Positions 12,534 through 59,573 of a DNA stretch of 64,000 nt are shown here, one piece after another. Source of the DNA: Candidatus Sulfobium sp. (GTDB taxonomy: Bacteria > Nitrospirota > Thermodesulfovibrionia > Thermodesulfovibrionales > UBA6898); the NCBI GenBank assembly GCA_037380845.1, contig JARRRI010000006.1:12782-76781 (forward strand), written 5' to 3'. The translations under genes and the position numbers were made by a program. Within the stretch, counting starts at the first letter, position 1. Every line of letters starts with the position of its first letter. The notes below the pieces were generated by a model that worked only from the letters and a program-made list of their open reading frames with translations, searched no databases and was not told where the DNA came from.

Positions 12534-13757
12534 ATGAATGTTAAGTCAATCAGGAGGCTGTCAATGCTGCCGAACAAACTTAATGCGATACCGATAGTTG
12601 CCCTTACCCTGGCTATTCTCCTGGGCGGCTGTAAGGGAAAGGTTGAGCCGGGGACCGCTGAGGTGAAAAGACAGCGGGTTAGCGGCGTGAAGGTGGAGAC
12701 GATACGGCCCGCCGAGGTCGACAAGTATTACGAAACCTCGGGGACTGTCATCGCGGACTCCGTAAGCGTTATCTCAAGCAGGATAATGGGTACAATCACT
12801 TCGATGAAAGTGAAGGAGGGCGATAAGGTACGAGCCGGGCAGCTTCTCCTTACAGTGGACAACAGGGACATACAACAGAAGGTCAAGGCTGCAAAAGAAA
12901 GCTACGAAGAGGCGAAGAAGGGACTGGAGGCGGCGAAGGAAAACAGGGACCTGGTCAATATCACTTACAGGAGATACAAGAACCTCTATGACGAAAAGGC
13001 GCTCACCGGACAGGAGCTTGACCAGATCCGGACCAAAAAGAAGGTTGCAGACATTGAATTGGCAAGGGCAAAGGCCGGTGTGAGGCGGGCCGAGGCAGGA
13101 CTCGGGGAGGCGGAGGTAAACCAGGGATTCGGACGCGTGACCGCCCCGACAGCGGGTATTGTTACGAACAAGAACGCAGACGCCGGCAGCATGGCGGTTC
13201 CCGGAAACCCTCTGATGAATATCGAAGACAATTCGTCCTACAGGCTAGAGATAAAGGGGAACGAGTCTTTATCGGGACGGATTACCGCGGGGATGGAGGC
13301 GGACATTTTCATCGGCGCTCTGGACAGGCATTTCAGGGGGCGGGTAGTAGAGGTTGTCCCTTCCGTGAATCCGGCAAGCAGAAGTTTTGTCGTTAAAATA
13401 CATCTCAGCGGGGAGGGGCTCAGAAGCGGCTTTTACGGCAGGGTCTCCATTGCGGTGGGTAAGAAGGAGGTCCTCCTGGTTCCGGCCGGTGCAGTCGTGG
13501 AGAGAGGAGAATTGACCGGCCTTTATACAGTTGGTAATGACAACGTGATTAAGTATACGTTGATCAGGGTCGGGAAGACTTTTGGAGGCAAGGTGGAAGT
13601 GCTCTCCGGACTTGAGCCGGATGACAGGGTGATCGTGGAAGGCATTGACAGGGCCGTCGACGGAGGGCTTTATGTCGGTGAAGTGAAAAGTCCAGGTAAT
13701 ACAACTGAAAAGGCGGGAAATCCTTTCAGTATGGAGTTCATGGCTGACGGTGAATAA
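12534..13757 (+). CDS. RND periplasmic adaptor subunit
   Basis: Lipobox-like LLGGC, biotinyl-like VKEGDKVRAGQLL and VTAPTAGIV. ATG 12534 follows GGGGAG (12564 is an alternative). The 12258 start runs through repeats. Confidence 0.85.
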   Translation: MNVKSIRRLSMLPNKLNAIPIVALTLAILLGGCKGKVEPGTAEVKRQRVSGVKVETIRPAEVDKYYETSGTVIADSVSVISSRIMGTITSMKVKEGDKVRAGQLLLTVDNRDIQQKVKAAKESYEEAKKGLEAAKENRDLVNITYRRYKNLYDEKALTGQELDQIRTKKKVADIELARAKAGVRRAEAGLGEAEVNQGFGRVTAPTAGIVTNKNADAGSMAVPGNPLMNIEDNSSYRLEIKGNESLSGRITAGMEADIFIGALDRHFRGRVVEVVPSVNPASRSFVVKIHLSGEGLRSGFYGRVSIAVGKKEVLLVPAGAVVERGELTGLYTVGNDNVIKYTLIRVGKTFGGKVEVLSGLEPDDRVIVEGIDRAVDGGLYVGEVKSPGNTTEKAGNPFSMEFMADGE

Positions 13758-42716: not shown

Positions 42717-45056
42717 ATGGGCAAATTAAATTCGATACACGACCTGAAGAAACTCAGGGCCCTTCTTGAGGAGGAGACCTTCGCCCCTGATATACCCAGG
42801 ATCAGGATGTGCAGCGGAACGGCCTGCACTGCGACGGGGACTCCCAAAGTGCTTACGGCGCTGGAAGAGGAGGCGGGCCGGAGAGGGATCAAACTTGACG
42901 TAGTGAAGACAGGCTGTCAGGGACTCTGCCAGAAGGGCCCCGTAATGCGGGTGGAACCGCAGGGTATATTCTACCAGAAGGTAAAGCCCGAACACGCCAA
43001 ATGGATAATGACCTACACGGTTGCGGGGGGCGTGCCTTACCGCCAGAGCCTTTACCGGGAAGATATCATGAGCGAGCCCGTGCCGGAGATGGCCAATGTG
43101 CCTTTTTACAGAAAGCAGCTCAGGATAGCCCTCAGGAACAACGGTGTGATTGACCCGCGCAATATCTATCACTATATCGCGGTGGGAGGATATAAGGCCC
43201 TCGAAAAGGCCCTCTCCTCCATGGCCCCCGAGGATGTCATGAATGAAGTCGACAATGCAATGCTACGGGGCCGCGGCGGCGCGGGATTCCCGGCGGGCAA
43301 GAAGTGGAGACACACGAAGGGTGCGCCCGGCTCGATCAAGTTTGTCATAGCAAACGGCGACGAGGGTGACCCCGGCGCCTTCATGGACAGGTCGGTTATG
43401 GAGGGCGACCCTCACAGTCTCTTCGAGGGGATGATCCTCTGCGCTTATGCGATAGGTGCCCGCTACGGTATGGTCTATGTAAGGCACGAATACCCGCTGG
43501 CGGTCAAGAACCTCGGCATAGCGATAAAACAGGCGGAAGAGATCGGGCTGCTCGGGAAGAACATCCTCGGCAGCGGTCTCGATTTCACGATAGACATAAG
43601 GGAGGGAGCGGGGGCCTTCGTCTGCGGTGAATCGACCGCCCTGGTTGCATCTATAGAAGGGGAGAGGGGCTTCCCGAGGCCGAGACCGCCGAGACTGTCT
43701 GAGCCCGGCGGAGGGGCCTGGGGTTATCCCAGCAACCTCAACAACATCGAGACTTACGCCTGTGTTCCGCCGATCGTCGAAAAAGGGGCTGGCTGGTTCA
43801 GGAGCATCGGCACCGAGAGTTCTCCGGGGACGAAGGTCTTCGCTCTTACCGGAAAGGTGAAGAATACCGGGCTGGTGGAGGTACCGATGGGTATGACCAT
43901 CAGGGAGATAATCTACGATATCGGTGGCGGCATCCTCGGGAACAAGGAATTCAAGGCTGTGCAGACCGGAGGGCCGTCGGGCGGTTGCCTGCCGGCAAGC
44001 TTTCTCGACCTGCCGGTGGATTTTGACTCTCTCACGAAGGCGGGCTCCATGATGGGCTCGGGTGGAATGGTCGTTCTGGATGAGGACACATGCATGGTGG
44101 ACGTGGCAAAATACTTCCTCTCCTTTACGCAATCGGAGTCCTGCGGCAAGTGCCCGCCGTGCAGGATCGGCACTTACCAGATGCTCCAGATATTAGAGAA
44201 GATAACCTCCGGTCAGGGTGAACAGGGCGACATCGAACGCCTCATAGAACTTGGGAAATCCATTCAGCATGGATCACTCTGCGGTCTCGGACAGAGCGCG
44301 CCGAACCCGGTTTTGAGCACCATAAAGTATTTCAGACAGGAATACGAGGAGCACATCCATGACAACTATTGCAGGGCTAAGGTATGCAGCAACATGGGCG
44401 TCTTCGTCATCAACCAGGCGGAGTGCATAAGGTGCGGTCTCTGCGAACAGGCCTGTGCTTTTGACGCTGTCACCGAGACAAGAGAGATGTACCAGATCGA
44501 CCGCGCATACTGCACAAGGTGCAAGGCTTGTTACCTTGCATGCCCTGTAGGTGCGGTCAAGATCAGGAAGCACAGCGTGGTGAAGCTGGAAGAACAGTTC
44601 AGGATACCTTCTGAGAAAATAGAAGTCCTTGAAAGGAGGGCTAGAATGACACTCAAAGACCTCATGCAGTCGAAGCCAACCAAGATGGTCACCTGCGGTA
44701 AGGATTCGAAGGTGGCGGAGGCCATCAGCATCATGGACAGCAACAATATAGGGTCTGTTCTGGTAGTCGACGAGGAGAAGAAGATCGTGGGCATATTTAC
44801 CGAAAGGGACATCATGCACTGTTTTGCCAAAAAGATCGCGGTTAACGAAACTGCCCTGGGCGACGTGATGACGCAAAAGCCCGTGACCCTGGACGGTTCC
44901 ATAGATATAAGTGTTGCGGTCAAGGTGATGTCGGAGAAGAAGATCAGGCATCTGCCGGTGACCGAGGACGAAAAGGTCATCGGCATGATCTCTTACAGGG
45001 ACCTTGTCTCCTACCTGCTGCCGGAGGTTATTTACATGGCAGAGGACATTTATTAA
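42717..45056 (+). CDS. NuoF/HydB-like FMN/NAD(H) subunit with 2x[4Fe-4S] domain and C-terminal CBS pair
   Basis: N-terminal 2Fe-2S, GRGGAGFP, DEGDPGAFMDR, GGPSGG, CGKCPPCR, two CxxCxxCxxxC motifs, then CBS motifs (GIFTERD, IRHLPV, GMISYRD). Confidence 0.92.
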   Translation: MGKLNSIHDLKKLRALLEEETFAPDIPRIRMCSGTACTATGTPKVLTALEEEAGRRGIKLDVVKTGCQGLCQKGPVMRVEPQGIFYQKVKPEHAKWIMTYTVAGGVPYRQSLYREDIMSEPVPEMANVPFYRKQLRIALRNNGVIDPRNIYHYIAVGGYKALEKALSSMAPEDVMNEVDNAMLRGRGGAGFPAGKKWRHTKGAPGSIKFVIANGDEGDPGAFMDRSVMEGDPHSLFEGMILCAYAIGARYGMVYVRHEYPLAVKNLGIAIKQAEEIGLLGKNILGSGLDFTIDIREGAGAFVCGESTALVASIEGERGFPRPRPPRLSEPGGGAWGYPSNLNNIETYACVPPIVEKGAGWFRSIGTESSPGTKVFALTGKVKNTGLVEVPMGMTIREIIYDIGGGILGNKEFKAVQTGGPSGGCLPASFLDLPVDFDSLTKAGSMMGSGGMVVLDEDTCMVDVAKYFLSFTQSESCGKCPPCRIGTYQMLQILEKITSGQGEQGDIERLIELGKSIQHGSLCGLGQSAPNPVLSTIKYFRQEYEEHIHDNYCRAKVCSNMGVFVINQAECIRCGLCEQACAFDAVTETREMYQIDRAYCTRCKACYLACPVGAVKIRKHSVVKLEEQFRIPSEKIEVLERRARMTLKDLMQSKPTKMVTCGKDSKVAEAISIMDSNNIGSVLVVDEEKKIVGIFTERDIMHCFAKKIAVNETALGDVMTQKPVTLDGSIDISVAVKVMSEKKIRHLPVTEDEKVIGMISYRDLVSYLLPEVIYMAEDIY

Positions 45057-45067
45057 GGGGAAGTATC

Positions 45068-45658
45068 ATGACAGAGCAGAAAGAACCTAAAGTAGAAGAG
45101 ATAAAGAAGGCGGCGGAGGAGGAGAAGAAATGTCCGGTCCAGAGGTCTCTGTTTTACATAGAGGGCTTCCTTGACGGGCCGATGTGCGGCAGATGCTTCC
45201 CGTGTGCCTTCGGCAGTTACGAGGCGCGGGTCAGGCTGAAGAGAATCATCCAGGGACGGGGCGGTGAGGACGACATCAGGACGCTGCGGCGCATATCGGA
45301 GGAGATGCTGACCAGTTCCCGGTGCAAGAAGGGCAAAGACACGGCGGCATTCCTGACGGAGTGGCTAAACACTGACGTCTTCAGGAGACATGCGGAAGGA
45401 AGCTGCCCCGACATGGAGTGTAAATCCCTGATCGAATACCGGATCATTCCTGAGAAGTGCACCATGTGCGGCCTCTGCCTGGAGGCATGCAAATACGCCG
45501 CAATTCACGGAGAGAAGAGGAGACCGTTTGCTTCGGGGTATTCTCCCTTCGAGATCCGCCAGAAGAGGTGTGTAAAGTGTGGAGACTGTCTGCCTGTGTG
45601 CCCCTATGGCGCAATAGTGATTGTAGAAAAAGAGGTGCCGGCCCCGGTCGGCGGATAA
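45068..45658 (+). CDS. NuoF Fe-S-binding domain plus 2x[4Fe-4S] ferredoxin protein
   Basis: CGRCFPC...SRCKKG, HAEGSCPDMEC, CTMCGLCLEAC and CVKCGDCLPVCP. Confidence 0.85.
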   Translation: MTEQKEPKVEEIKKAAEEEKKCPVQRSLFYIEGFLDGPMCGRCFPCAFGSYEARVRLKRIIQGRGGEDDIRTLRRISEEMLTSSRCKKGKDTAAFLTEWLNTDVFRRHAEGSCPDMECKSLIEYRIIPEKCTMCGLCLEACKYAAIHGEKRRPFASGYSPFEIRQKRCVKCGDCLPVCPYGAIVIVEKEVPAPVGG

Positions 45659-45698
45659 ATGGCGGGTGTCTGAGCCTGTAATTTTATAGGAGGATTGG

Positions 45699-47720
45699 AT
45701 GGGAAAGACGGTAAATCTTAAAATAGACGGAAAGGACGTTCAGGTTGCGGAGGGCCTCAACCTCATCGAGGCAGCGGCCGAGGCCGGGGTTCACATCCCG
45801 AACCTCTGCTATCTGAAGGGCATGAAGGGCATCGGAGCCTGCAGGCTCTGCTTGGTGGAGATCGAAGGCATGAAGTCGCCCATGATCGCCTGCACCACAA
45901 AGGCCAAGGACGGCATGGTGGTCAATACGAAGACCGAGAAGGTCCAGGAGGTCAGGAAGTTCGTGGTAGATCTTATCCTGTCCATGCACCCCCTTGACTG
46001 TATGACCTGCACCAAGGCGGGTGTCTGCAACTTGCAGCAATATGCCTACGATTTCGAGATAAAGGAATCGAGTTTTTCGAGGAAGAAGTTCGGCTATCCG
46101 ATAGACGAAGCCAATCCTTTCATAAAGAGAGATCCCGATTACTGCGTTCTCTGCGGAAGGTGCATACGTGTATGCCAGGCCCAGGACACCAACGTTCTGG
46201 AGTTCTCCGGCAGGGGTGTGGGCGCCAGGGTCGTCACTGCGGAGGACAAGCCACTGCAGGAGTCTGATTGCACCTTCTGCGGAAGCTGTGTGGACGCGTG
46301 CCCGGTAAACGCCCTCCTTGAAGCCGACCGGTGGAGAAAGGGGCGTGAATGGGAATATGAAAAAACGGACTCCGTCTGTCTTTCGTGTGGTAACGGATGC
46401 AGCATTACGGTGAGCACAAAAGACGGAGAGGTAATAAAGATAAACTCGGGTGCTCCGGAAGGAACCGCCGAGCGGTTCATCTGTGCCAGGGGAAGGTTTG
46501 GATTCGACAGCCTCACCAGCGACCAGCGCGTGGGAACTCCGATGAAAAGGGTCGACGGTGATCTTCAGGAGACGACATGGGATGATGCCATTGAAACGGT
46601 TGCGGGGAAACTGAAGGCGGCCGGCCAGGATGCCTCGATCGTCAGCAGCGCAAACATTCTGAATGAAGACGCACTATTACTGAAGAAACTGGCTTCCGAT
46701 GTGGTGAAAACAAGGAACGTCGACTCTTCCGTAACTCTGTATTCTGACTATGATTCACTGAAGAACGGCACGGCGGACCTGCAGAATGCCGACCTGTTCA
46801 TCCTGGCAGGAACGGCACCCGACCAGTGGACAAGAGTCCTGCCGGCCCTCGACGCGGTTATCAGAAGGAAGATGAACAATGACGGCGCAAAGCTGATCGT
46901 TATCAATTCGGGTGATACCAAGATCGCGTCAAAGGCAACCGCCAACCTTAAGGGCGACGAGGTGAAAAAGCTTGAGGAGCTTGCCCAGGCCATGATCTCT
47001 AAAGGCGTAAAGGCCCCGAAAGAGATGGTGGAAGCCCTCGCATCCGTCGACCCCTCTGACGAGGCCATGAACGCCGCGGACATCCTTGTGGCCGCGAAAT
47101 CACCCGTTATCCTTGCCGCCCCCGCTCTTTACAGGGCTGCCGCCAACCTCTCGCTCATAAAGTCCGAGGCTGTGTCGGTGCCTCTTGAGGCAAACTCCAA
47201 AGGCGTGGCGCTCATGGGCCTGACGACGGAAGGGAAGAAATTCAGGGAGATAATTTCCTCTCATTCAAAAGCACTCTATGTGGTCGGAGAAGTGCCGGTG
47301 AGCGAGAGGCCGGATACTGATTTCCTCGTAGTACAGGCTTCCCACATGACAGGCCTGGCGAAGGAGGCCGATGTGGTCCTGCCGTCGGCAGCTGCACTCG
47401 AATCGGGGGGGACGATAGTGGATTATCTCGGAAGGTTGAAAGAGGTCAAAAAGGCGGTGGAGCCTGCCGGTGATGCGCTTCCGCATTCAGTGATATTCAC
47501 GGCAGTTGCGAAGGCTATGGGCGCCTCTCTGAAGACTCCGAAGGACACAGAAGTCAAAAAGGCCCTGAAAGGAAAAGTGAAGGCCTCCTTCAGTCCTTTC
47601 CGGAAAGATAAGGACCTCGACGTTGATGTGGAGAAGTTTAACGAGGATATAAATATGTCGACCATAAACGGTTCGAGGCTTCTCTGGCTGAAGGAGCTTG
47701 AGAAGGGAGTGGCTGCGTAG
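45699..47720 (+). CDS. NuoG/FdhA-like Fe-S subunit with degenerate molybdopterin domain
   Basis: 2Fe-2S GACRLC, HPLDCMTC, two 4Fe-4S and CLSCGNGC. NVDSSVTLY replaces the Cys/Sec-His active-site segment of Fdh. Confidence 0.85.
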   Translation: MGKTVNLKIDGKDVQVAEGLNLIEAAAEAGVHIPNLCYLKGMKGIGACRLCLVEIEGMKSPMIACTTKAKDGMVVNTKTEKVQEVRKFVVDLILSMHPLDCMTCTKAGVCNLQQYAYDFEIKESSFSRKKFGYPIDEANPFIKRDPDYCVLCGRCIRVCQAQDTNVLEFSGRGVGARVVTAEDKPLQESDCTFCGSCVDACPVNALLEADRWRKGREWEYEKTDSVCLSCGNGCSITVSTKDGEVIKINSGAPEGTAERFICARGRFGFDSLTSDQRVGTPMKRVDGDLQETTWDDAIETVAGKLKAAGQDASIVSSANILNEDALLLKKLASDVVKTRNVDSSVTLYSDYDSLKNGTADLQNADLFILAGTAPDQWTRVLPALDAVIRRKMNNDGAKLIVINSGDTKIASKATANLKGDEVKKLEELAQAMISKGVKAPKEMVEALASVDPSDEAMNAADILVAAKSPVILAAPALYRAAANLSLIKSEAVSVPLEANSKGVALMGLTTEGKKFREIISSHSKALYVVGEVPVSERPDTDFLVVQASHMTGLAKEADVVLPSAAALESGGTIVDYLGRLKEVKKAVEPAGDALPHSVIFTAVAKAMGASLKTPKDTEVKKALKGKVKASFSPFRKDKDLDVDVEKFNEDINMSTINGSRLLWLKELEKGVAA

Positions 47721-52656: not shown

Positions 52657-53178
52657 GTGAAGGTTCTCGTTCTTGGAGTCGGCAATGTACTGATGAGGGA
52701 TGAAGCCCTGGGGGTGAGGGCGGTGGAGGAACTTGGGAGGAGGTACCGGTTCCCGGAAAACGTGGAACTCCTCGACGGGGGTACTTCCGGAATCGAGTTG
52801 CTGTCGTACATCAGGGAGAGAGATTATCTTATTGTTATTGATGCCGTGAGAAGCGGCAGCCCCCCGGGTACGGTAGTCAGGGTGGAGGGCGAAGACGTGC
52901 CTGCCAGATTCATGACAAGGATTTCGCCGCACCAACTGGGCATTTCGGATCTGCTTGCGACGGCAACGATCAGCGGTCATCTTCCTGAAAGAATGGTCCT
53001 TTTCGGAATAGAGCCGAAAGACGTTGAATTGGGGCTCGGACTGTCCGACGAGGTTAGGGCCGGGTTCGGAAGGTTGATAGAAGTGGTATTGAACGAGTTG
53101 TGCGAGTTAGGTTATGGCGCCGAGCAGGTGCCCGGCGAAGGTCCCCTTTCAAAGAGCAGGTGGGAGCCCGGGGGCTGA
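52657..53178 (+). CDS. Hydrogenase maturation endopeptidase (HyaD/HybD family)
   Basis: LGVGNVLMRDE, DGGT, IDAV and SPHQ. Confidence 0.92.
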   Translation: MKVLVLGVGNVLMRDEALGVRAVEELGRRYRFPENVELLDGGTSGIELLSYIRERDYLIVIDAVRSGSPPGTVVRVEGEDVPARFMTRISPHQLGISDLLATATISGHLPERMVLFGIEPKDVELGLGLSDEVRAGFGRLIEVVLNELCELGYGAEQVPGEGPLSKSRWEPGG

Positions 53179-53183
53179 AGGTC

Positions 53184-53438
53184 ATGTGTCTCGCGATACC
53201 GTCAAAGATCGTCAAGTTGAGTGAATTTACGGCTGTAGTGGATGTCTACAGCGCCCGCAGGGAGATCAGTCTCCTGCTTATGCCCGAAGAGGTCGGTATT
53301 GGGGATTACGTCCTCGTCCACGCGGGTTTCGCAATCCAGAAGGTTGAGCATGAGACGGCCCAGGAAACGCTCAGGACCATTTCGGCTGTCATCGAAGAAT
53401 CTGAAAAAGAAGTCGACGATGACGGTATGGCAGAGTAG
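53184..53438 (+). CDS. hypC: Hydrogenase maturation chaperone HypC/HybG
   Basis: MCLAIP and GDYVLVHAGFAI. Confidence 0.93.
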   Translation: MCLAIPSKIVKLSEFTAVVDVYSARREISLLLMPEEVGIGDYVLVHAGFAIQKVEHETAQETLRTISAVIEESEKEVDDDGMAE

Positions 53439-53802: not shown

Positions 53803-54835
53803 ATGAAAGGTGATTTTGAAGGGATCTCCGATGACGTGGGGTCCCCATATGAGAGGTTGCTTAAAAGGGGGGTATCACGAAGAGATTTCATGAAATTCTG
53901 TGCATCCATGGGCGCGGTCCTTGCCTTGCCGGGGGGATACGCCGGTAAGATCGCGGAAGCCATCGAGAAGACGAAGAGGCCGCCTCTCGTCTGGCTTGAG
54001 TTCCAGGACTGTGCGGGCAATACGGAGGCCTTCCTCAGGGCGAACAAGCCTAGCGTAAGGAAGATTGTTCTCGACGTCCTGTCTGTTGACTACCATGAGA
54101 CCATAATGGCCCCCGCCGGAAAACAGGCCGAGAAATCGCTGGACGACGTTGTGAAAAACCAGAAAGGTAAATACCTGGCTGTCGTTGAGGGCTCTATACC
54201 GCTGAAAGACAATGGGGTATATTGCTGCGTCGGCGGCAAGAGTGCAATCGACATCACCAGGGAGGTGTGCGGCAATGCGATGGCGACCATTGCGGCCGGG
54301 ACCTGTGCAACCTTCGGAGGTATCCCGGCGGCGGCACCCAATCCGACCGGTGCCGTTGGCGTTCAGGAAGCAATGCCGGGCATTACCGTTGTGAATCTTT
54401 CGGGCTGTCCCATGAACCCCGACAATCTGACAGCGGTGGTTGTACACTTCCTTACCTTTGGAACTCTGCCTGCCACGGACCGGCTGAACAGACCTCTTTT
54501 TGCCTATGGCGAAAGGATCCACGACCATTGTCAGAGAAGGGCACACTACGATGCCGGCCAGTTCGTCAGGCAGTGGGGTGACGAGGGGCACAGGCTCGGC
54601 TGGTGCCTTTACGAAATGGGATGCAAGGGGCCGGATACTTTTCTGAACTGTCCTGCCATAAGGTATAACATGTCCGTTCTATAAGAGACTTCCCAAAGTC
54701 CCAGGCTTCGGCGTCGAGGCGACTGCGGATAAGGTCGGAGCTGGCGTAGCGGGAGTGGCTGTTGCCGGTGTCATTGCCCACAGGATTGCCCGGGCCGTAA
54801 GGGGAAAAGAGAAGGAAGAAGAAAAAAATAAATAG
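53803..54835 (+). pseudogene. Group 1 [NiFe]-hydrogenase small subunit (Tat signal), disrupted as sequenced by a deletion/frameshift near 54670
   Basis: SRRDFMK, WLEFQDCAGN, GTCA, SGCP, HDHC and CLYEMGCKGP. The frame stops at 54684. The TM tail PFYKRLP...AGVIAH continues in the +1 frame to TAG at 54835. The GHxCxGC segment is absent. Confidence 0.85.
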
Positions 54836-54859
54836 TCAGGACGAAAGGAGAATGTGATC

Positions 54860-56569
54860 ATGGCCAAGATAGTCGTTGATCCTATCACACGGATCGAGGG
54901 GCATCTCAGGATAGAAGCTCAGGTAGAAGGCGGCAAAGTGGCCGACGCATGGTCTTCCAGTACCATGTTCCGGGGGATAGAGATCATCCTGAAGGGGCGG
55001 GATCCAAGGGATGCATGGTACTTTGCCCAGCGAATATGAGGCGTCTGAACAACGGTTCACGCCAACAGCTCCGTGAGAGCTGTAGAAAATGCTCTGAGTA
55101 TCACCATACCGGAAAATGCGAGGCTCATGAGGAACCTCATAACCGGTATCCAGTTTATCCAGGACCACGTCATACATTTTTATCACCTCCACGCACTTGA
55201 CTGGGTGGACCTGGTAAATGCGCTGCAGGCCGACCCGGCCAGGACGGCCTCCCTCGCACAGTCTATTTCGGACTGGCCGAAGTCCAGCGCGACTTATTTC
55301 AAGGGTATCAAAGACAAGCTGAAGACCTTCGTAGAGAGCGGGCAACTGGGCATCTTCGCCAACGCATACTGGGGTCACCCGGCCTACAAACTCCCGCCGG
55401 AAGCCAACCTCATGGCAGCCGCCCACTATCTGGAAGCTCTTGACTGGCAGAAGAACGTGATCAGGATTCATGCCATTCTGGGCGCCAAGAACCCTCATCT
55501 TCAGACTTACCTGGTCGGCGGGATGGCGTTGCCGATAGACCTCAACAGCGAGAGTGCACTCAATGACGGCGGCCTGACCGAAATCGCCGAACTGAGCAGC
55601 AAGGCAAAGGACTTCGTTGAACAGGTCTACATTCCCGACCTGCTGGCCGTCGCGTCGTTTTACAAGGAGTGGTTCGGCTATGGCGCGGGAATAGGAAACT
55701 ACCTGGCCTATGGTGAATTCCCCAACGATACGGTTTCCAATACAGGCAATCTGTGGCTGCCCAGGGGCATTATCAAGAATAAGGACCTCAGTAAGGTATA
55801 CCCCGTAGACCAGGAGAAGATAGCCGAGTATGTTACGCATTCATGGTATGAATACAGCAACGGGAACGACACGGCAAGGCATCCGTGGAAAGGAGAGACT
55901 GATTATCATTACACCGGTCCCCAGCCGCCTTATCAGTTCCTGGATACGGCCAGGAAATATTCGTGGATAAAGGCTCCTCGTTATGAAAATGAGGCTATGG
56001 AAGTCGGACCGTTGTCGAGGATGCTGGTGGCTTACGCATCGGGCCACAAGCGTATCAGGGAAGTGATAGACTCGGTTCTGAAGAAACTGAACGCCGGTCC
56101 TGAAGCACTGTTCTCGACGCTCGGAAGAGACGCCGCCAGAGGGGTAGAGACGCTCGTTACGGCGGAGATGATGAGCGTATGGCTTAACCAGTTGACGGCT
56201 AACATCAAGAAAGGCGACGTCAGCATTCATAATAACAGTAAGTGGGAGCCCTCGACCTGGCCCAGGGAGGCCAAAGGCTACAGCCTGAGCGAGGCGCCGA
56301 GAGGTGCGTTGGGCCACTGGGTCAAGATCAAGGATGAGAAAATTGAGAACTATCAGTGCGTAGTCCCCAGTACCTGGAACGGATCTCCGAGAGACGCTTC
56401 CGGCAAGAAGGGTGCGTACGAGTCGTCTCTCATGGGTACCCCTGTGGCGGAACCTGACAAGCCCATAGAGATCCTGAGGACGGTGCACTCGTTCGACCCG
56501 TGTATGGCCTGCGCGGTTCATGTACTCGATGCCGAGGGGAAAAAAGTGACCAGGATACAGGTGGTTTAG
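54860..56569 (+). CDS. Group 1 (HybC-like) [NiFe]-hydrogenase large subunit with two in-frame UGA codons at the L1 Ni ligands
   Basis: [19 protein letters not shown](55037)-GV-TGA(55046)-[23 protein letters not shown] and [11 protein letters not shown] plus a cleavable tail. One continuous frame of 569 codons. Confidence 0.92.
55065..55083 (+). promoter_or_regulatory. SECIS-like hairpin downstream of the two UGA codons
   Basis: ACAGCUC-CGUGA-GAGCUGU. The loop starts 23 nt after the second UGA and 32 nt after the first, and contains GU. Confidence 0.55.
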
Positions 56570-56584: not shown

Positions 56585-57241
56585 ATGCAGAAGAGAGTTT
56601 ATGTATGGGAAGCGCCGGTCAGGATAGTCCACTGGCTGATCGCCCTTTGCCTGCTGGTCCTTGCTTTCACCGGAGTGTATATCAGCTACCCGTTCATCGT
56701 TGGAACGACAAGCAAACAGTATGTAATGGGGTGGAGCAGGTTTATCCATTTTGTTGCCGCTTATGTGTTTGTGGTGGCCCTTGCAGTGCGAATTTACTGG
56801 GCGTTCGCCGGGAACCGCTATGCATCGTGGAGGGCATTTTTCCCCTTCAGCGGCAAGAGGGCCGGCGGTATGTTAAAGAATATACTGTTCTACTCACTCA
56901 TCATAAAGAGACCGGAGCCTGAAACCGGGCATACGCCGCTTGCGGGGCTCACATATCTTGTGATCTTCATACTGTACCTGATCCAGATAGTAACGGGGTT
57001 TGCACTTTATTCTCTTTATGCTCCGCAAGGCACCATGCACGACCTTTTCGGGTGGTGGTTCTCGGTGACTACCATACCGGTGACAAGGTTGATACACCAC
57101 ATGATAATGTGGCTGCTGCTGTATTTCGTCATCATACACGTCTATATCGCTCTTTTCCTCGACAAGGCGGAGAAGAACGGTCTGGTCGGAAGCATGTTCA
57201 CGGGTTATAAATTTATGGAGACTGAAGAAACGGAACGGTAG
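56585..57241 (+). CDS. Ni/Fe-hydrogenase b-type cytochrome subunit (HyaC-like)
   Basis: VWEAPVRIVHW, RFIHF, GHTPLA and RLIHH...IHVY. Confidence 0.92.
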   Translation: MQKRVYVWEAPVRIVHWLIALCLLVLAFTGVYISYPFIVGTTSKQYVMGWSRFIHFVAAYVFVVALAVRIYWAFAGNRYASWRAFFPFSGKRAGGMLKNILFYSLIIKRPEPETGHTPLAGLTYLVIFILYLIQIVTGFALYSLYAPQGTMHDLFGWWFSVTTIPVTRLIHHMIMWLLLYFVIIHVYIALFLDKAEKNGLVGSMFTGYKFMETEETER

Positions 57242-57288
57242 CTCCTGTGCCGTTAACGCGGCTGGGGAAACAGACAGGAGGATCTGAA

Positions 57289-57828
57289 ATGACCGCCTTT
57301 AGACGCGGCATATCTAAGGATTGTCGTATTGGAATATGCTTGAAGCGAATTTACACGCGGAAGCGGCGCCTTCTCATCTTCATTGCTGCATTGGCTGTCT
57401 CTCTTGGCACATCTCAATGGAGTCCGTTGCCGCAATTACTGAGTTCACAGTCTACAGCTGTTGCAGCAGAACAGTCGAAGACAGGCGATGCTCCTCAAGC
57501 ACTGGGGGCCCGACTTTATGGCGAAAAATGCGCGGGCTGTCATGGGACCAAGGGGAAAGGTATACCGAAACTTTTTCCGCCTCTTGCAGGGGACCCTGTG
57601 GTCACCGCGAAAAATGCGCACTATGTCATTCGGGCCGTTCTTTTCGGGATGCAGGGCTCGATCATCGGCGGGCTCACATATGAGGTGCGTATGCCTCCCT
57701 GGGCCGGTCAGCTATCCGACGAGGAGGTCGCCGCAGTCATAAATCACATCAGATCAAACTGGGGGAATGACGCCCCTGCCGTCAGCCCGGCAGAGGTTGC
57801 GAAGGTCCGGAGCGAGGGGCCTCCTTAA
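57289..57828 (+). CDS. Monoheme class I c-type cytochrome
   Basis: CAGCH, FPPLAG, MPPW (Met ligand) and IRSNWGN, with an AGGAGG RBS. Confidence 0.85.
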   Translation: MTAFRRGISKDCRIGICLKRIYTRKRRLLIFIAALAVSLGTSQWSPLPQLLSSQSTAVAAEQSKTGDAPQALGARLYGEKCAGCHGTKGKGIPKLFPPLAGDPVVTAKNAHYVIRAVLFGMQGSIIGGLTYEVRMPPWAGQLSDEEVAAVINHIRSNWGNDAPAVSPAEVAKVRSEGPP

Positions 57829-57852: not shown

Positions 57853-58740
57853 ATGAAAAGATTCAGCGGCGGGCCTCTCGCAAGGAAGGTTTTTATTGCT
57901 TTGTCTGCCTTATTCGCGGTTATTCTGCCGGACCCGTCATTTGCGGTTTCGCAGTCATACTGCTTTTCCTGTCACGGTCATAAAGGGTTTCCAGGCGGCT
58001 ATGTGGACCAGACCCGATATGAGGAATCGGTACATGGCACGCGTCCCTGCAGCGGCTGCCACCTCGACGTTGTCTAAGACATAAAAAACGCCCCTATTTG
58101 TCAGACCTGCCACGGCTCGCACTACATTCTGCCCCCGCAGAATCCGAAGTCCCGGGTAAACCGGAAAAATATTCCCCGCCTTTGCTCTCAGTGCCATGAA
58201 AGACAGTATGATCGGTACATGAAAAGCATTCACGCCAGGGCTTTCTTTCAAATGAAGGTAGAAAAGGCCGCGGTATGTTACGACTGTCATGAAGAACACC
58301 GCGTGCCCAACGTGACGCAGCCCCGCTGGAAGCTGTGGCTGGTGAAGGAATGCGGTTCCTGCCATCGGCGGGAGCTGGCCACATACAGAGATACCATACA
58401 CGGTGAGATCAGTCGTCTCGGCTATACGACGGTGGCGAGGTGTCCCGACTGTCATGGCCATCACGACATTCTGCCTCCGTCGAATCCGGCTTCCACTCTG
58501 TTTTTCGGCCCGAACAGGGTCCATACCTGCAAAAAGTGTCATCCCTCGGCTACGGTGCGCTTTACGGAATATTATGCACACCCGGACATGCATGACAGGA
58601 CGAGGTACCCGATGCTCTACTACACCTATCTCTTCATGTCGGTCCTTATTTTTGGTGTTTTCAGTTTCTTCTCGGTTCACACTTTTCTCTGGGCTTATCG
58701 CTCCGTGAAGGAACGCCACGAAGCGAAGGAGAAGAAATGA
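57853..58740 (+). pseudogene. Membrane-anchored multiheme cytochrome c (8 visible CxxCH) interrupted by an in-frame TAA at 58075-58077
   Basis: Signal peptide, CFSCH and CSGCH, then TAA, then in the same frame CQTCH, CSQCH, CYDCH, CGSCH, CPDCH and CKKCH, and a C-terminal TM containing His. Confidence 0.8.
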
Positions 58741-59573
58741 CGGAGAGGGAAGGCGGGGGGACCTATGTAAGAAGACTGATACCTTACCACAGGGTTCTTC
58801 ACGTGTTTGTTCAACTCAGCTTCTTCGGCCTGGTGTCGACAGGTATGCCGCTGAAATACTCGGACGCGCCCTGGGCGTCATGGATAATGAAGTTCTGGGG
58901 CGGCTACCAGAATGCAGGATTTATCCACAGGATTTGCGCCTCTGTAACTTTTGGGTACTTCATAGCTCACTTGCTTTTCGTTCTTTACTATGTAGGTCGT
59001 GTCAAGAAGTTCAGGTTTGCACCTTTTGGTCCCGATTCCATGATTCCGAGGCCCAAAGATTTCAGAGATATTTACGGAAGTTTTCGGTGGTTTCTGGGCG
59101 TTTCACCGCGGCCCCGGTTCGACAGATGGACCTACTGGGAGAAATTCGACTACTGGGCGGTATTCTGGGGGGTAGGAATAATCGGGGGCTCCGGTCTGCT
59201 TCTCTGGTTCAAGGAATTCTTCGGCCAGTTTCTGCCGGGCTACATTTTCAATATCGCCACCATAGTCCATGGAGAAGAGGCGCTGCTGGCCGCTGCTTTC
59301 ATTTTTACCATACACTTTTTCAATACCCACATGAGGCCTGAAAAATTTACCATGGATACCGTCATGTTTACCGGACGACTTAGCATGGATGAGTTCCGGC
59401 GGGAGAGGCCCCTGGAATACAAGCGACTTGAGGAAAGGGGGGATCTCGATAAGTATCGTACAAAACCTCCGTCGGGATTGCTATTGTGTATATCGATACC
59501 CTACGGCGTTTTTCTGCTTCTCTTCGGATTCTTCCTGCTGGTCCTGATCCTGCTCGGCCAATTTGTCTATTAG
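58737..59573 (+). CDS. FdnI/HydC-like diheme cytochrome b
   Basis: HRVLH, IHRICA, RFDRWTYWEKFDYWAVFWG and HGEEALLA..FIFTIHFFNTH. Overlaps the stop codon of the multiheme gene. Confidence 0.88.
   Translation: MTEREGGGTYVRRLIPYHRVLHVFVQLSFFGLVSTGMPLKYSDAPWASWIMKFWGGYQNAGFIHRICASVTFGYFIAHLLFVLYYVGRVKKFRFAPFGPDSMIPRPKDFRDIYGSFRWFLGVSPRPRFDRWTYWEKFDYWAVFWGVGIIGGSGLLLWFKEFFGQFLPGYIFNIATIVHGEEALLAAAFIFTIHFFNTHMRPEKFTMDTVMFTGRLSMDEFRRERPLEYKRLEERGDLDKYRTKPPSGLLLCISIPYGVFLLLFGFFLLVLILLGQFVY

Follow-up and report, generated by a model that had tools for sequence, protein, structure and literature searches.

The gene at positions 54860-56569 of a 64,000-nucleotide stretch of DNA from Candidatus Sulfobium sp. 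(order Thermodesulfovibrionales, phylum Nitrospirota; positions 12,782 to 76,781 of contig JARRRI010000006.1, assembly GCA_037380845.1; hereafter the window, with coordinates counted from its first letter) encodes the large subunit of a Group 1 [NiFe] hydrogenase in which both cysteine (Cys) codons of the N-terminal nickel-binding motif are UGA. We regard programmed recoding of some kind at both UGAs as nearly certain, because of the conservation of the two codons, purifying selection on either side of them, a covarying hairpin downstream, and the presence in the same genome of selenocysteine (Sec) machinery together with other UGA-containing selenoprotein genes. It is also probable, judging from the sequences compared here, that both codons are read as Sec by SelB-dependent recoding with a single Sec insertion sequence (SECIS), which would make the product a Group 1 uptake hydrogenase with two Sec residues at its active site.

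The large-subunit gene

Apart from two internal TGAs, the gene is one uninterrupted forward-strand frame of 569 codons that runs from ATG 54860, preceded by an AAGGAG ribosome-binding site, to TAG 56567-56569. Its only in-frame stops, TGA 55037-55039 (codon 60, UGA-1) and TGA 55046-55048 (codon 63, UGA-2), coincide with the two Cys of the RxCGxC motif, and the L1 motif after read-through is Q-R-I-U-G-V-U-T-T-V-H. At the other end of the protein, the motif D-P-C-M-A-C-A-V-H is intact with ordinary Cys codons (TGT 56501-56503 and TGC 56510-56512), and so is the tail of 15 residues that follows it. The product therefore has the full N-terminal pattern RxCGxCxxxH, with UGA at both Cys, and the full C-terminal pattern DPCxxCxxH, with TGT and TGC. 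An earlier note on the window, made from the letters alone, had claimed that two pieces of open reading frame (54854-55039 and 55073-56569) share one frame, that the only stops are the two TGAs at the L1 Cys pair, and that the remainder, including DPCMACAVH and the maturation tail, is intact; translation of 54860-56569 bears out each of these points.

The read-through protein matches PF00374 from residue 38 to residue 554 over model positions 1-508 of 508, with an E-value of 4.5e-241. Its nearest solved structure is 3MYR chain B, to which residues 3-554 align so that both the L1 and the L2 motif are in register (E 1.2e-225), and its best matches in the PDB are Group 1 enzymes. The assignment of the two UGA positions to the terminal and the bridging ligand, which the earlier note had also made, agrees with Evans 2021 (PMC8020662) and Takano 2026 (PMC13582414).

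In public protein collections, UGA-type orthologues are stored as proteins of 498 residues (six) or 480 residues (one) that start after UGA-2 and are annotated as plain Ni,Fe-hydrogenase large subunits. Among the best 120 database matches, seven are shortened UGA-type proteins and 113 are full-length, 112 of the latter having Cys at both L1 positions and one being unreadable by pattern.

Conservation of the two TGA codons

Both TGAs are present in independent contigs, which were taken from the Logan contigs of runs X1, X8, X9 and X11, all from marsh or salt-marsh metagenomes; X1 is possibly the source sample, X8 is not marked as source, and X9 belongs to another study. The contigs of X1 and X9 cover 54673-55400 and that of X8 covers 54673-55081, each with 0 differences from the window and with both TGAs, and a diverged relative in X11 (26 differences) has kept both. 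No RNA run was found among the public runs listed as holders of this DNA. Over 55040-55076, the summed contig depth in the marsh runs rises about ten-fold, to 414 and 531 from background values of 47 and 16, and the excess is made up of numerous short contigs with differences at 3-5 bases; the segment comprising the UGA and the hairpin is therefore common to many community members in nearly unchanged form.

A protein search in 41 genomes, namely this genome and 40 relatives, retrieved a full-length orthologue with exactly two TGAs from 21 of them, at 69-100% identity; one of these 21 genomes, G029, is closed and consists of a single contig. Over 110 loci, 80 from a species-genome collection and 30 from the relatives, the L1 state (first plus second Cys position) is UGA+UGA in 44, Cys+UGA in 11 and Cys+Cys in 55; the state UGA+Cys occurs in none of the 110. 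Both Cys are invariant in all 55 Cys-type homologues. The order as a whole was scanned, with one genome per species, for the degenerate pattern TGA-GGN-GTN-TGA plus the next four codons. This pattern is found in 100 of 317 genomes (74 of 219 if only those of high quality are counted), which are spread over 58 of the 122 genera and 10 of the 13 families, and the reversed pattern, serving as a control, has no match in any of the 317. Outside Nitrospirota, UGA+UGA occurs in metagenome-assembled genomes (MAGs) labelled Methylomirabilia, Thermodesulfobacteriota and Proteobacteria, and Cys+UGA in MAGs labelled Rokubacteria, Chloroflexota and 'delta proteobacterium'; Cys-type orthologues come from Geobacteraceae, Roseiflexus, Acidobacteriota and Chloroflexota.

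In comparisons with three congeners, the ratio of nonsynonymous to synonymous substitution (dN/dS) is 0-0.011 before the UGAs (codons 1-59) and 0.049-0.053 after them (codons 64-569), at dS values of 0.66-1.17; dS is saturated in more distant comparisons. Because the ratio is low on both sides of the UGAs, the two sides are translated and constrained as one protein. A crude genome-wide scan for pairs of in-frame TGAs at a distance of 1-4 codons, flanked by open frames on either side, returned 92 places, of which the hydrogenase alone is recognisable by motif, the others having had no homology search.

A probable recoding hairpin downstream of the UGAs

The minimum-free-energy fold of the window has two adjacent hairpins in the region 55040-55083 downstream of UGA-1. 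The distal one starts 16 nt after UGA-2 and 25 nt after UGA-1. In an alignment of 45 distinct UGA-type orthologue sequences, in which the pairs of this structure were counted, three of the seven pairs of the distal hairpin vary on both sides (A-U, U-A and G-C; G-C and C-G; U-A and G-C). Taken jointly, the two hairpins have 88% of their cells paired, against 26-45% when the partners are slid by 1-3 columns, and none of 500 shuffles reached the observed percentage paired or the observed covariation score. The 11-13 unpaired cells at two of the pairs are due to a sub-clade in which the pairing is shifted by one base and includes a bulge. The proximal hairpin (93.6% of cells paired) consists mostly of invariant pairs.

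The 24-nt stretch that contains the distal hairpin folds with -6.6 to -11.3 kcal/mol in all 45 UGA-type orthologues, whereas in 55 Cys-type genes the mean is -5.2 kcal/mol and the range -0.4 to -12.2 kcal/mol (Mann-Whitney p 3e-12, a value that is overstated since the sequences are kin). Third-codon entropy over 55054-55078 is 0-0.8 bit in UGA-type and 1.5-1.9 bit in Cys-type genes, and positions 55054 and 55057 are nearly fixed in UGA-type genes only; from 55081 onward the variability of third codon positions is equal in both sets, which provides an internal control for relatedness. The loop base G 55073 is present in 45 of 45 UGA-type and in 26 of 54 Cys-type sequences, and the U next to it is invariant in the alignment.

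The distal hairpin has the features of a bacterial SECIS, namely a stem-loop downstream of the UGA with a G early in its apical loop, although its distance from UGA-1 is long. The two fdhA-like genes of this genome each have a UGA, a 12-nt spacer and a hairpin of 6-7 bp with a 5-nt loop beginning G-G; by its predicted structure, the distal hairpin of the hydrogenase gene is of the same kind but more distant from its UGAs. An Rfam scan of 54950-55200 with E-values up to 10 gave no SECIS family and one chance snoRNA match. An RNAalifold consensus of the 45 UGA-type sequences was rejected: it consisted of a weak, non-covarying long-range helix of -1.7 kcal/mol and missed the hairpin owing to the one-base-shifted, bulged subset.

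Phylogeny and a possible order of acquisition

A tree of 102 large subunits was computed with UGA sites masked as Cys by a quick IQ-TREE search; it is unrooted, and support values are those of the Shimodaira-Hasegawa-like approximate likelihood-ratio test (SH-aLRT). The window sequence falls in a clade of 41 members (support 98), of which 38 are UGA+UGA, one Cys+UGA and two Cys+Cys, so that reversions in this clade are few even though a single base change makes a Cys codon. Elsewhere in the tree, a second UGA+UGA sequence, from Methylomirabilia, has as its sister a Cys+UGA sequence from Rokubacteria, the outgroup being Cys+Cys, and a third Cys+UGA sequence, from Chloroflexota, has a Cys+Cys sister. 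To the extent that an unrooted tree allows, this topology fits a history in which Sec arose at the bridging position before the terminal one, on at least two occasions; the complete lack of UGA+Cys among the 110 loci agrees with this order.

A paralogous clade of Group 1 large subunits, at about 50% identity, comprises seven Cys+UGA members with the motif Q-R-F-C-G-V-U (L114-L120, from other genomes of the family and order) and one Cys+Cys member. Their hairpin is different, with a 6-bp stem 11 nt after the UGA and a 6-nt loop starting G-G. None of these Cys+UGA paralogues was found in the genome studied here.

Selenocysteine machinery and a Sec-shaped tRNA-Cys

The genome encodes tRNA-Sec(UCA), which scores 73 bits, as well as SelA and SelB, both of which read without internal stops. 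Its selD gene (C20:72243) contains a single in-frame TGA where Sec is usually found, with a hairpin behind it, and the two fdhA-like genes (C29:36972 and C13:49478) have one TGA each at the usual Sec site; selA, selB, selC and selD are thus all present. Elsewhere in the genome TGA acts as a stop: it is the commonest terminator of open frames of at least 300 codons, ending 845 of 1727. Canonical tRNA-Sec, scoring at least 65 bits, was found in 15 of the 21 UGA+UGA genomes.

The genome also contains a Sec-shaped tRNA-Cys(GCA) of 94 nt (C62:31154-31247; L002:1501-1594), which ARAGORN draws with acceptor and T stems of 8 and 5 bp, a long variable arm and U73, and which scores 47.3 bits on the tRNA-Sec model RF01852, just above the family cut-off. 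An open reading frame with a TusA domain (L002:1619-2224) lies directly after it. Such tRNAs occur in 17 of the 41 genomes, some with far longer variable arms: in 11 of the 21 with a UGA+UGA gene and in six of the 20 others. Four of these 17 (G029, G031, G032 and G036) were missed by ARAGORN and are less certain, having been counted from sequence likeness and Infernal matches to RF01852; a BLAST search with the Sec-shaped tRNA-Cys as query also retrieved canonical tRNA-Sec genes. Four UGA+UGA genomes with tRNA-Sec and a completeness of 99-100% (G005, G027, G028 and G037) yielded no Sec-shaped tRNA-Cys; in these, the next-best matches to the tRNA-Sec model that were fetched are tRNA-Ser or tRNA-Leu and the other matches listed, at 73-83 nt, are too short. 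Because it was not found in these four genomes and occurs on both sides of the UGA+UGA divide, the tRNA is neither required for nor specific to the UGA+UGA gene.

Interpretation and alternative explanations

In the scheme we favour, SelB-dependent recoding would carry translation through codons 60 and 63, with the single SECIS-type hairpin at 55065-55083 most likely serving both UGAs in turn and canonical tRNA-Sec presumably supplying Sec, rather than Cys, to the terminal and bridging N-terminal positions. The C-terminal ligand pair would remain Cys, which would give a Ni(Se)(mu-Se)(S)(mu-S) site, and the Sec-shaped tRNA-Cys(GCA) may add a Cys fallback, for instance when selenium is scarce. 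That Sec is placed at both sites, at least when selenium is available, we consider likely. For the fuller picture of a widespread natural Group 1 uptake hydrogenase whose nickel would be held by two selenolates, one terminal and one bridging, and by two thiolates, with an all-sulfur fallback provided by the tRNA-Cys, our confidence is lower, and we lean only slightly towards it. Any catalytic consequence of the two predicted Sec residues is one that we infer.

The earlier note had proposed programmed recoding in place of random nonsense, a view to which the conservation, the dN/dS values, the covarying hairpin and the Sec machinery all lend support. The observations by which it suggested the proposal be judged have come out on the same side: the TGAs recur in the X1, X8 and X9 contigs, homologues keep TGA-GGN-GTN-TGA both among the 41 genomes and across the order, selection downstream of the stops is not relaxed, and tRNA-Sec, selA, selB and a UGA-containing selD are present in the genome. 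The alternative it raised, insertion of Cys at UGA by a dedicated tRNA with a UCA anticodon, is borne out only in part: no tRNA-Cys(UCA) is among the ARAGORN calls for this genome, but the Sec-shaped tRNA-Cys(GCA) is there.

Several observations weigh against the reading with two Sec residues. Counted from the U of each codon, the distal loop begins 26 nt downstream of UGA-2 and 35 nt downstream of UGA-1, compared with about 21 nt in the fdhA-like genes. Bacterial SECIS elements lie within a range of 16-37 nt, and UGA-1 is at the far edge of it. Most UGA-type sequences are kin, so that statistics across the UGA-type set overstate the case. Canonical tRNA-Sec was not found in six of the 21 UGA+UGA genomes, all six being MAGs of 200-530 contigs, and the Sec-shaped tRNA-Cys of the present genome makes Cys at one or both UGAs possible. 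In E. coli hydrogenase-1 (Hyd-1), moreover, the variants C76U and C79U had 3% and 13% of native activity and were almost inactive at 10% O2, and extreme O2 tolerance came from Sec at the classical position, C576U, only (Evans 2021, PMC8020662). No obvious benefit of Sec at these positions appears to be known.

One alternative accepts SelB and the hairpin but holds that one or both UGAs receive Cys from the Sec-shaped tRNA-Cys(GCA), so that an all-Cys or single-Sec enzyme would result. The 8/5 fold, U73 and score of that tRNA, and its occurrence in about half of the UGA+UGA genomes, speak for it, as does the report by Takano 2026 (PMC13582414) that UCA and GCA forms of tRNA-ReC mediate UGA-to-Cys decoding with a SECIS. 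The same type of tRNA is found, however, in genomes without a UGA+UGA gene, and its apparent absence from the four near-complete UGA+UGA genomes that have tRNA-Sec counts for Sec. With a Cys product, a UGA and a constrained hairpin should decay, yet they are kept across the order. Sec is favoured over Cys because this arrangement gains nothing over UGC and nevertheless persists order-wide with few reversions, and because the complete Sec pathway, together with other selenoprotein genes, is kept in this genome. We therefore rate delivery of Cys as rather unlikely.

It is far less probable still that the gene is a pseudogene, or that the TGAs are sequencing or assembly errors, with only the 498-codon piece from GTG 55073, or nothing, being made. 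The storage of relatives as 498-residue proteins starting after UGA-2 and the broken frame of the small-subunit gene in the window could be taken in this sense. Both TGAs are nevertheless present in independent contigs and in nearly a third of the species of the order, codons 1-59 are under stronger purifying selection than the remainder, a product of 498 residues would be without two of the four nickel ligands, and the small-subunit break is an assembly gap, the 74 nt that restore the frame being present in the X1 and X8 contigs (see below). For practical purposes this explanation is already refuted. Nor is there much to be said for a reading of UGA as Trp or Gly by a changed code or a general suppressor tRNA, for which we found nothing beyond the read-through of UGA as such and which we consider the most improbable of the explanations weighed here: TGA is the commonest terminator of long frames, tRNA-Sec is the sole tRNA with a UCA anticodon called by ARAGORN, SelA and SelB read without internal stops, and both sites are invariantly Cys in the Cys-type homologues.

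Genomic surroundings

The large-subunit gene lies among genes for a small subunit, for maturation proteins and for cytochromes (Table 1). By sequence, the genes are arranged like those of a Group 1 [NiFe] uptake hydrogenase that faces the periplasm and is anchored in the membrane, with a small subunit bearing a twin-arginine (TAT) signal, a cytochrome b, and a C-terminal tail together with a protease.

Table 1. Features of the hydrogenase gene cluster in the window
Feature	Position	Strand	Evidence or remark
HycI/HyaD-type hydrogenase maturation endopeptidase	52657..53178	+	PF01750, E 7e-35
HypC/HupF-family maturation chaperone	53100..53438	+	PF01455, E 1.7e-24
Hydrogenase small subunit, twin-arginine signal, frame broken in window	53803..54835	+	TIGR00391, E 1.1e-112; TIGR01409
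[NiFe] hydrogenase large subunit	54860..56569	+	569 codons, two UGAs read through; PF00374, PDB matches
UGA-1, codon 60, first L1 Cys position (terminal Ni ligand in solved homologues)	55037..55039	+	Alignment to 3MYR chain B
Proximal hairpin, UGA-2 within stem	55040..55063	+	Minimum-free-energy fold; conserved, function not established
UGA-2, codon 63, second L1 Cys position (Ni-Fe bridging ligand in solved homologues)	55046..55048	+	Alignment to 3MYR chain B
SECIS-like distal hairpin, 7-bp stem, 5-nt loop 55072-55076	55065..55083	+	Fold, covariation; G-U 55073-55074 invariant
DPCxxCxxH nickel-binding motif, C-terminal	56495..56521	+	Both Cys codons ordinary
15-residue C-terminal extension	56522..56566	+	Expected to be removed by the maturation protease, whose gene is upstream
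b-type cytochrome membrane anchor of hydrogenase	56585..57241	+	PF01292, E 3.1e-30; TIGR02125, E 5.9e-47
c-type cytochrome	57247..57828	+	PF13442, PF00034
Small multihaem cytochrome	58219..58740	+	Weak, below Pfam cut-offs
Cytochrome-b-like membrane protein	58737..59573	+	Weak, below Pfam cut-offs

In the window, the frame of the small subunit breaks after N-C-P-A-I-R-Y-N. Compared with four congeners, it is without 74 nt at 54672|54673, and the lost stretch encodes the iron-sulfur cluster ligands of G-H-G-C-x-G-C. A contig of 10.8 kb from X1 and one of 3.2 kb from X8 match the window perfectly on both sides and carry 74 additional letters between 54672 and 54673; a contig from X9 has a matching loose end at the same junction. 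Because the frame is restored by the 74 nt in the X1 and X8 contigs, the gap reflects an artefact of the window's assembly, or else a minor variant, and not decay of the operon.

The first iron-sulfur motif of the small subunit, at 54010-54021, is C-A-G-N, compared with C-T-G-C in E. coli hydrogenase-2 (Hyd-2). Among the 70 loci readable at the second Cys position of this motif, 64 have Asp or Asn and six have Cys, and the Asp/Asn majority is common to the Sec-type and the Cys-type members of the family, which suggests an unusual ligand set for the proximal cluster. In a congener (L011 and L094), the small-subunit gene has TGG (Trp) at a position of G-H-G-C-x-G-C that is a Cys codon in the other relatives. 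At 42717-47720, three clustered genes encode a Nuo51-like flavin mononucleotide subunit with fused CBS domains, a subunit resembling ferredoxin and a molybdopterin oxidoreductase resembling NuoG; by appearance, they form a soluble dehydrogenase module, either for formate or linked to NAD(P)H.

Significance and comparison with known systems

Each characterised [NiFeSe] hydrogenase has one selenium at one position, and the role of that selenium in O2 tolerance and H2 production has long been debated. If the interpretation given here is true, the enzyme would have the first di-selenium [NiFe] site in an uptake enzyme and would offer a natural test of the role of selenium at non-classical positions. 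That selection maintains it in roughly one in three species of this anaerobic order would mean that selenium pays at the terminal and bridging positions too, in contrast to the apparent harm of the single engineered substitutions reported by Evans 2021 (PMC8020662). The gene would also provide a natural system in which to ask how SelB serves two UGAs three codons apart and what role a Sec-shaped tRNA-Cys plays. Because databases store N-terminally shortened proteins of 498 residues, surveys of hydrogenases and selenoproteomes miss or misjudge these genes.

Canonical [NiFeSe] hydrogenases, such as those of Desulfomicrobium baculatum (1CC1) and Desulfovibrio vulgaris (HysAB, 2WPN/5JSH), resemble the enzyme of the window in being periplasmic Group 1 enzymes with selenium expected at the nickel. 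Their single Sec, however, is the first residue of the C-terminal DPUxxC, where the window has TGT 56501-56503. Their structures match the enzyme with E-values of 1e-101 to 1e-89 over residues 177-568 only, and on the NCBIfam HysA model NF045518 it scores 411.6 bits against a cut-off of 780, which places it outside that family. In a 2026 review of prokaryotic selenoproteomes, the only hydrogenase selenoproteins listed are those with the C-terminal UxxC and FrhD/VhuD. The membrane-bound [NiFe] hydrogenase of Allochromatium vinosum (3MYR), the closest enzyme of solved structure, is all-Cys, unlike the enzyme considered here.

Sec has been placed at the same two ligand positions of a Group 1 enzyme in the C76U and C79U variants of E. 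coli Hyd-1, with catalysis retained (Evans 2021, PMC8020662). Each of these carries one substitution, introduced by UAG suppression into an O2-tolerant enzyme, and no double variant was made, whereas the natural gene has both UGAs and its product would have evolved around both Sec sites. According to Takano 2026 (PMC13582414), Baltazar 2011 noted an N-terminal CXXU in two sequences of Group 1 and one of Group 3; Evans 2021 (PMC8020662) cites the same review for a substitution of the bridging residue but names C579. In the Group 1 CXXU sequences, Sec is predicted at the bridging position from one UGA; the window gene has the terminal UGA too. We found the CXXU state in four orthologues and in the seven-member paralogous clade. 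No prior report of a Group 1 UXXU was found in a full-text literature search of accessible texts without supplements, and the statement of the earlier note that no characterised enzyme has such a coordination still holds, the only precedent being the Group 4 UXXU described in silico.

That precedent, in print since September 2026, is the in silico study of Takano 2026 (Front Microbiol, PMC13582414), which describes N-terminal UXXU in Group 4 and calls UXXC and UXXU previously unrecognised; Groups 1-3 were excluded from it by design. The likeness extends to many features: UGA stands at one or both Cys of the N-terminal CXXC, a hairpin with a G in the first two loop positions lies downstream, one SECIS is proposed for both UGAs, sel genes and often tRNA-ReC-like tRNAs are present, and gene callers shorten the genes. 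tRNA-ReC (selC*), in its UCA and GCA forms, can put Cys at a SECIS-linked UGA, as Takano 2026 states citing Vargas-Rodriguez 2018, and an enrichment of such tRNAs was found there for the genomes that encode UXXU hydrogenases of Group 4 (PMC13582414). The tRNA-Cys(GCA) of the present genome shares their Sec-like 8/5 fold, long variable arm and U73, its delivery of Cys being putative, but among the relatives it is not restricted to UGA+UGA genomes. The Group 4 enzymes are energy-converting and face the cytoplasm, and the 47 sequences reported make up about 0.2% of the group (Takano 2026, PMC13582414). The enzyme of the window falls outside Group 4, its closest structures and family models being those of Group 1; it belongs to the periplasmic uptake type, with a TAT small subunit and a cytochrome b, and its TGA pattern occurs in 100 of the 317 species of its order. 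On the sequence comparisons made here, the gene would be the Group 1 counterpart of the Group 4 hydrogenases with an N-terminal UXXU, and a far commoner one within its lineage.

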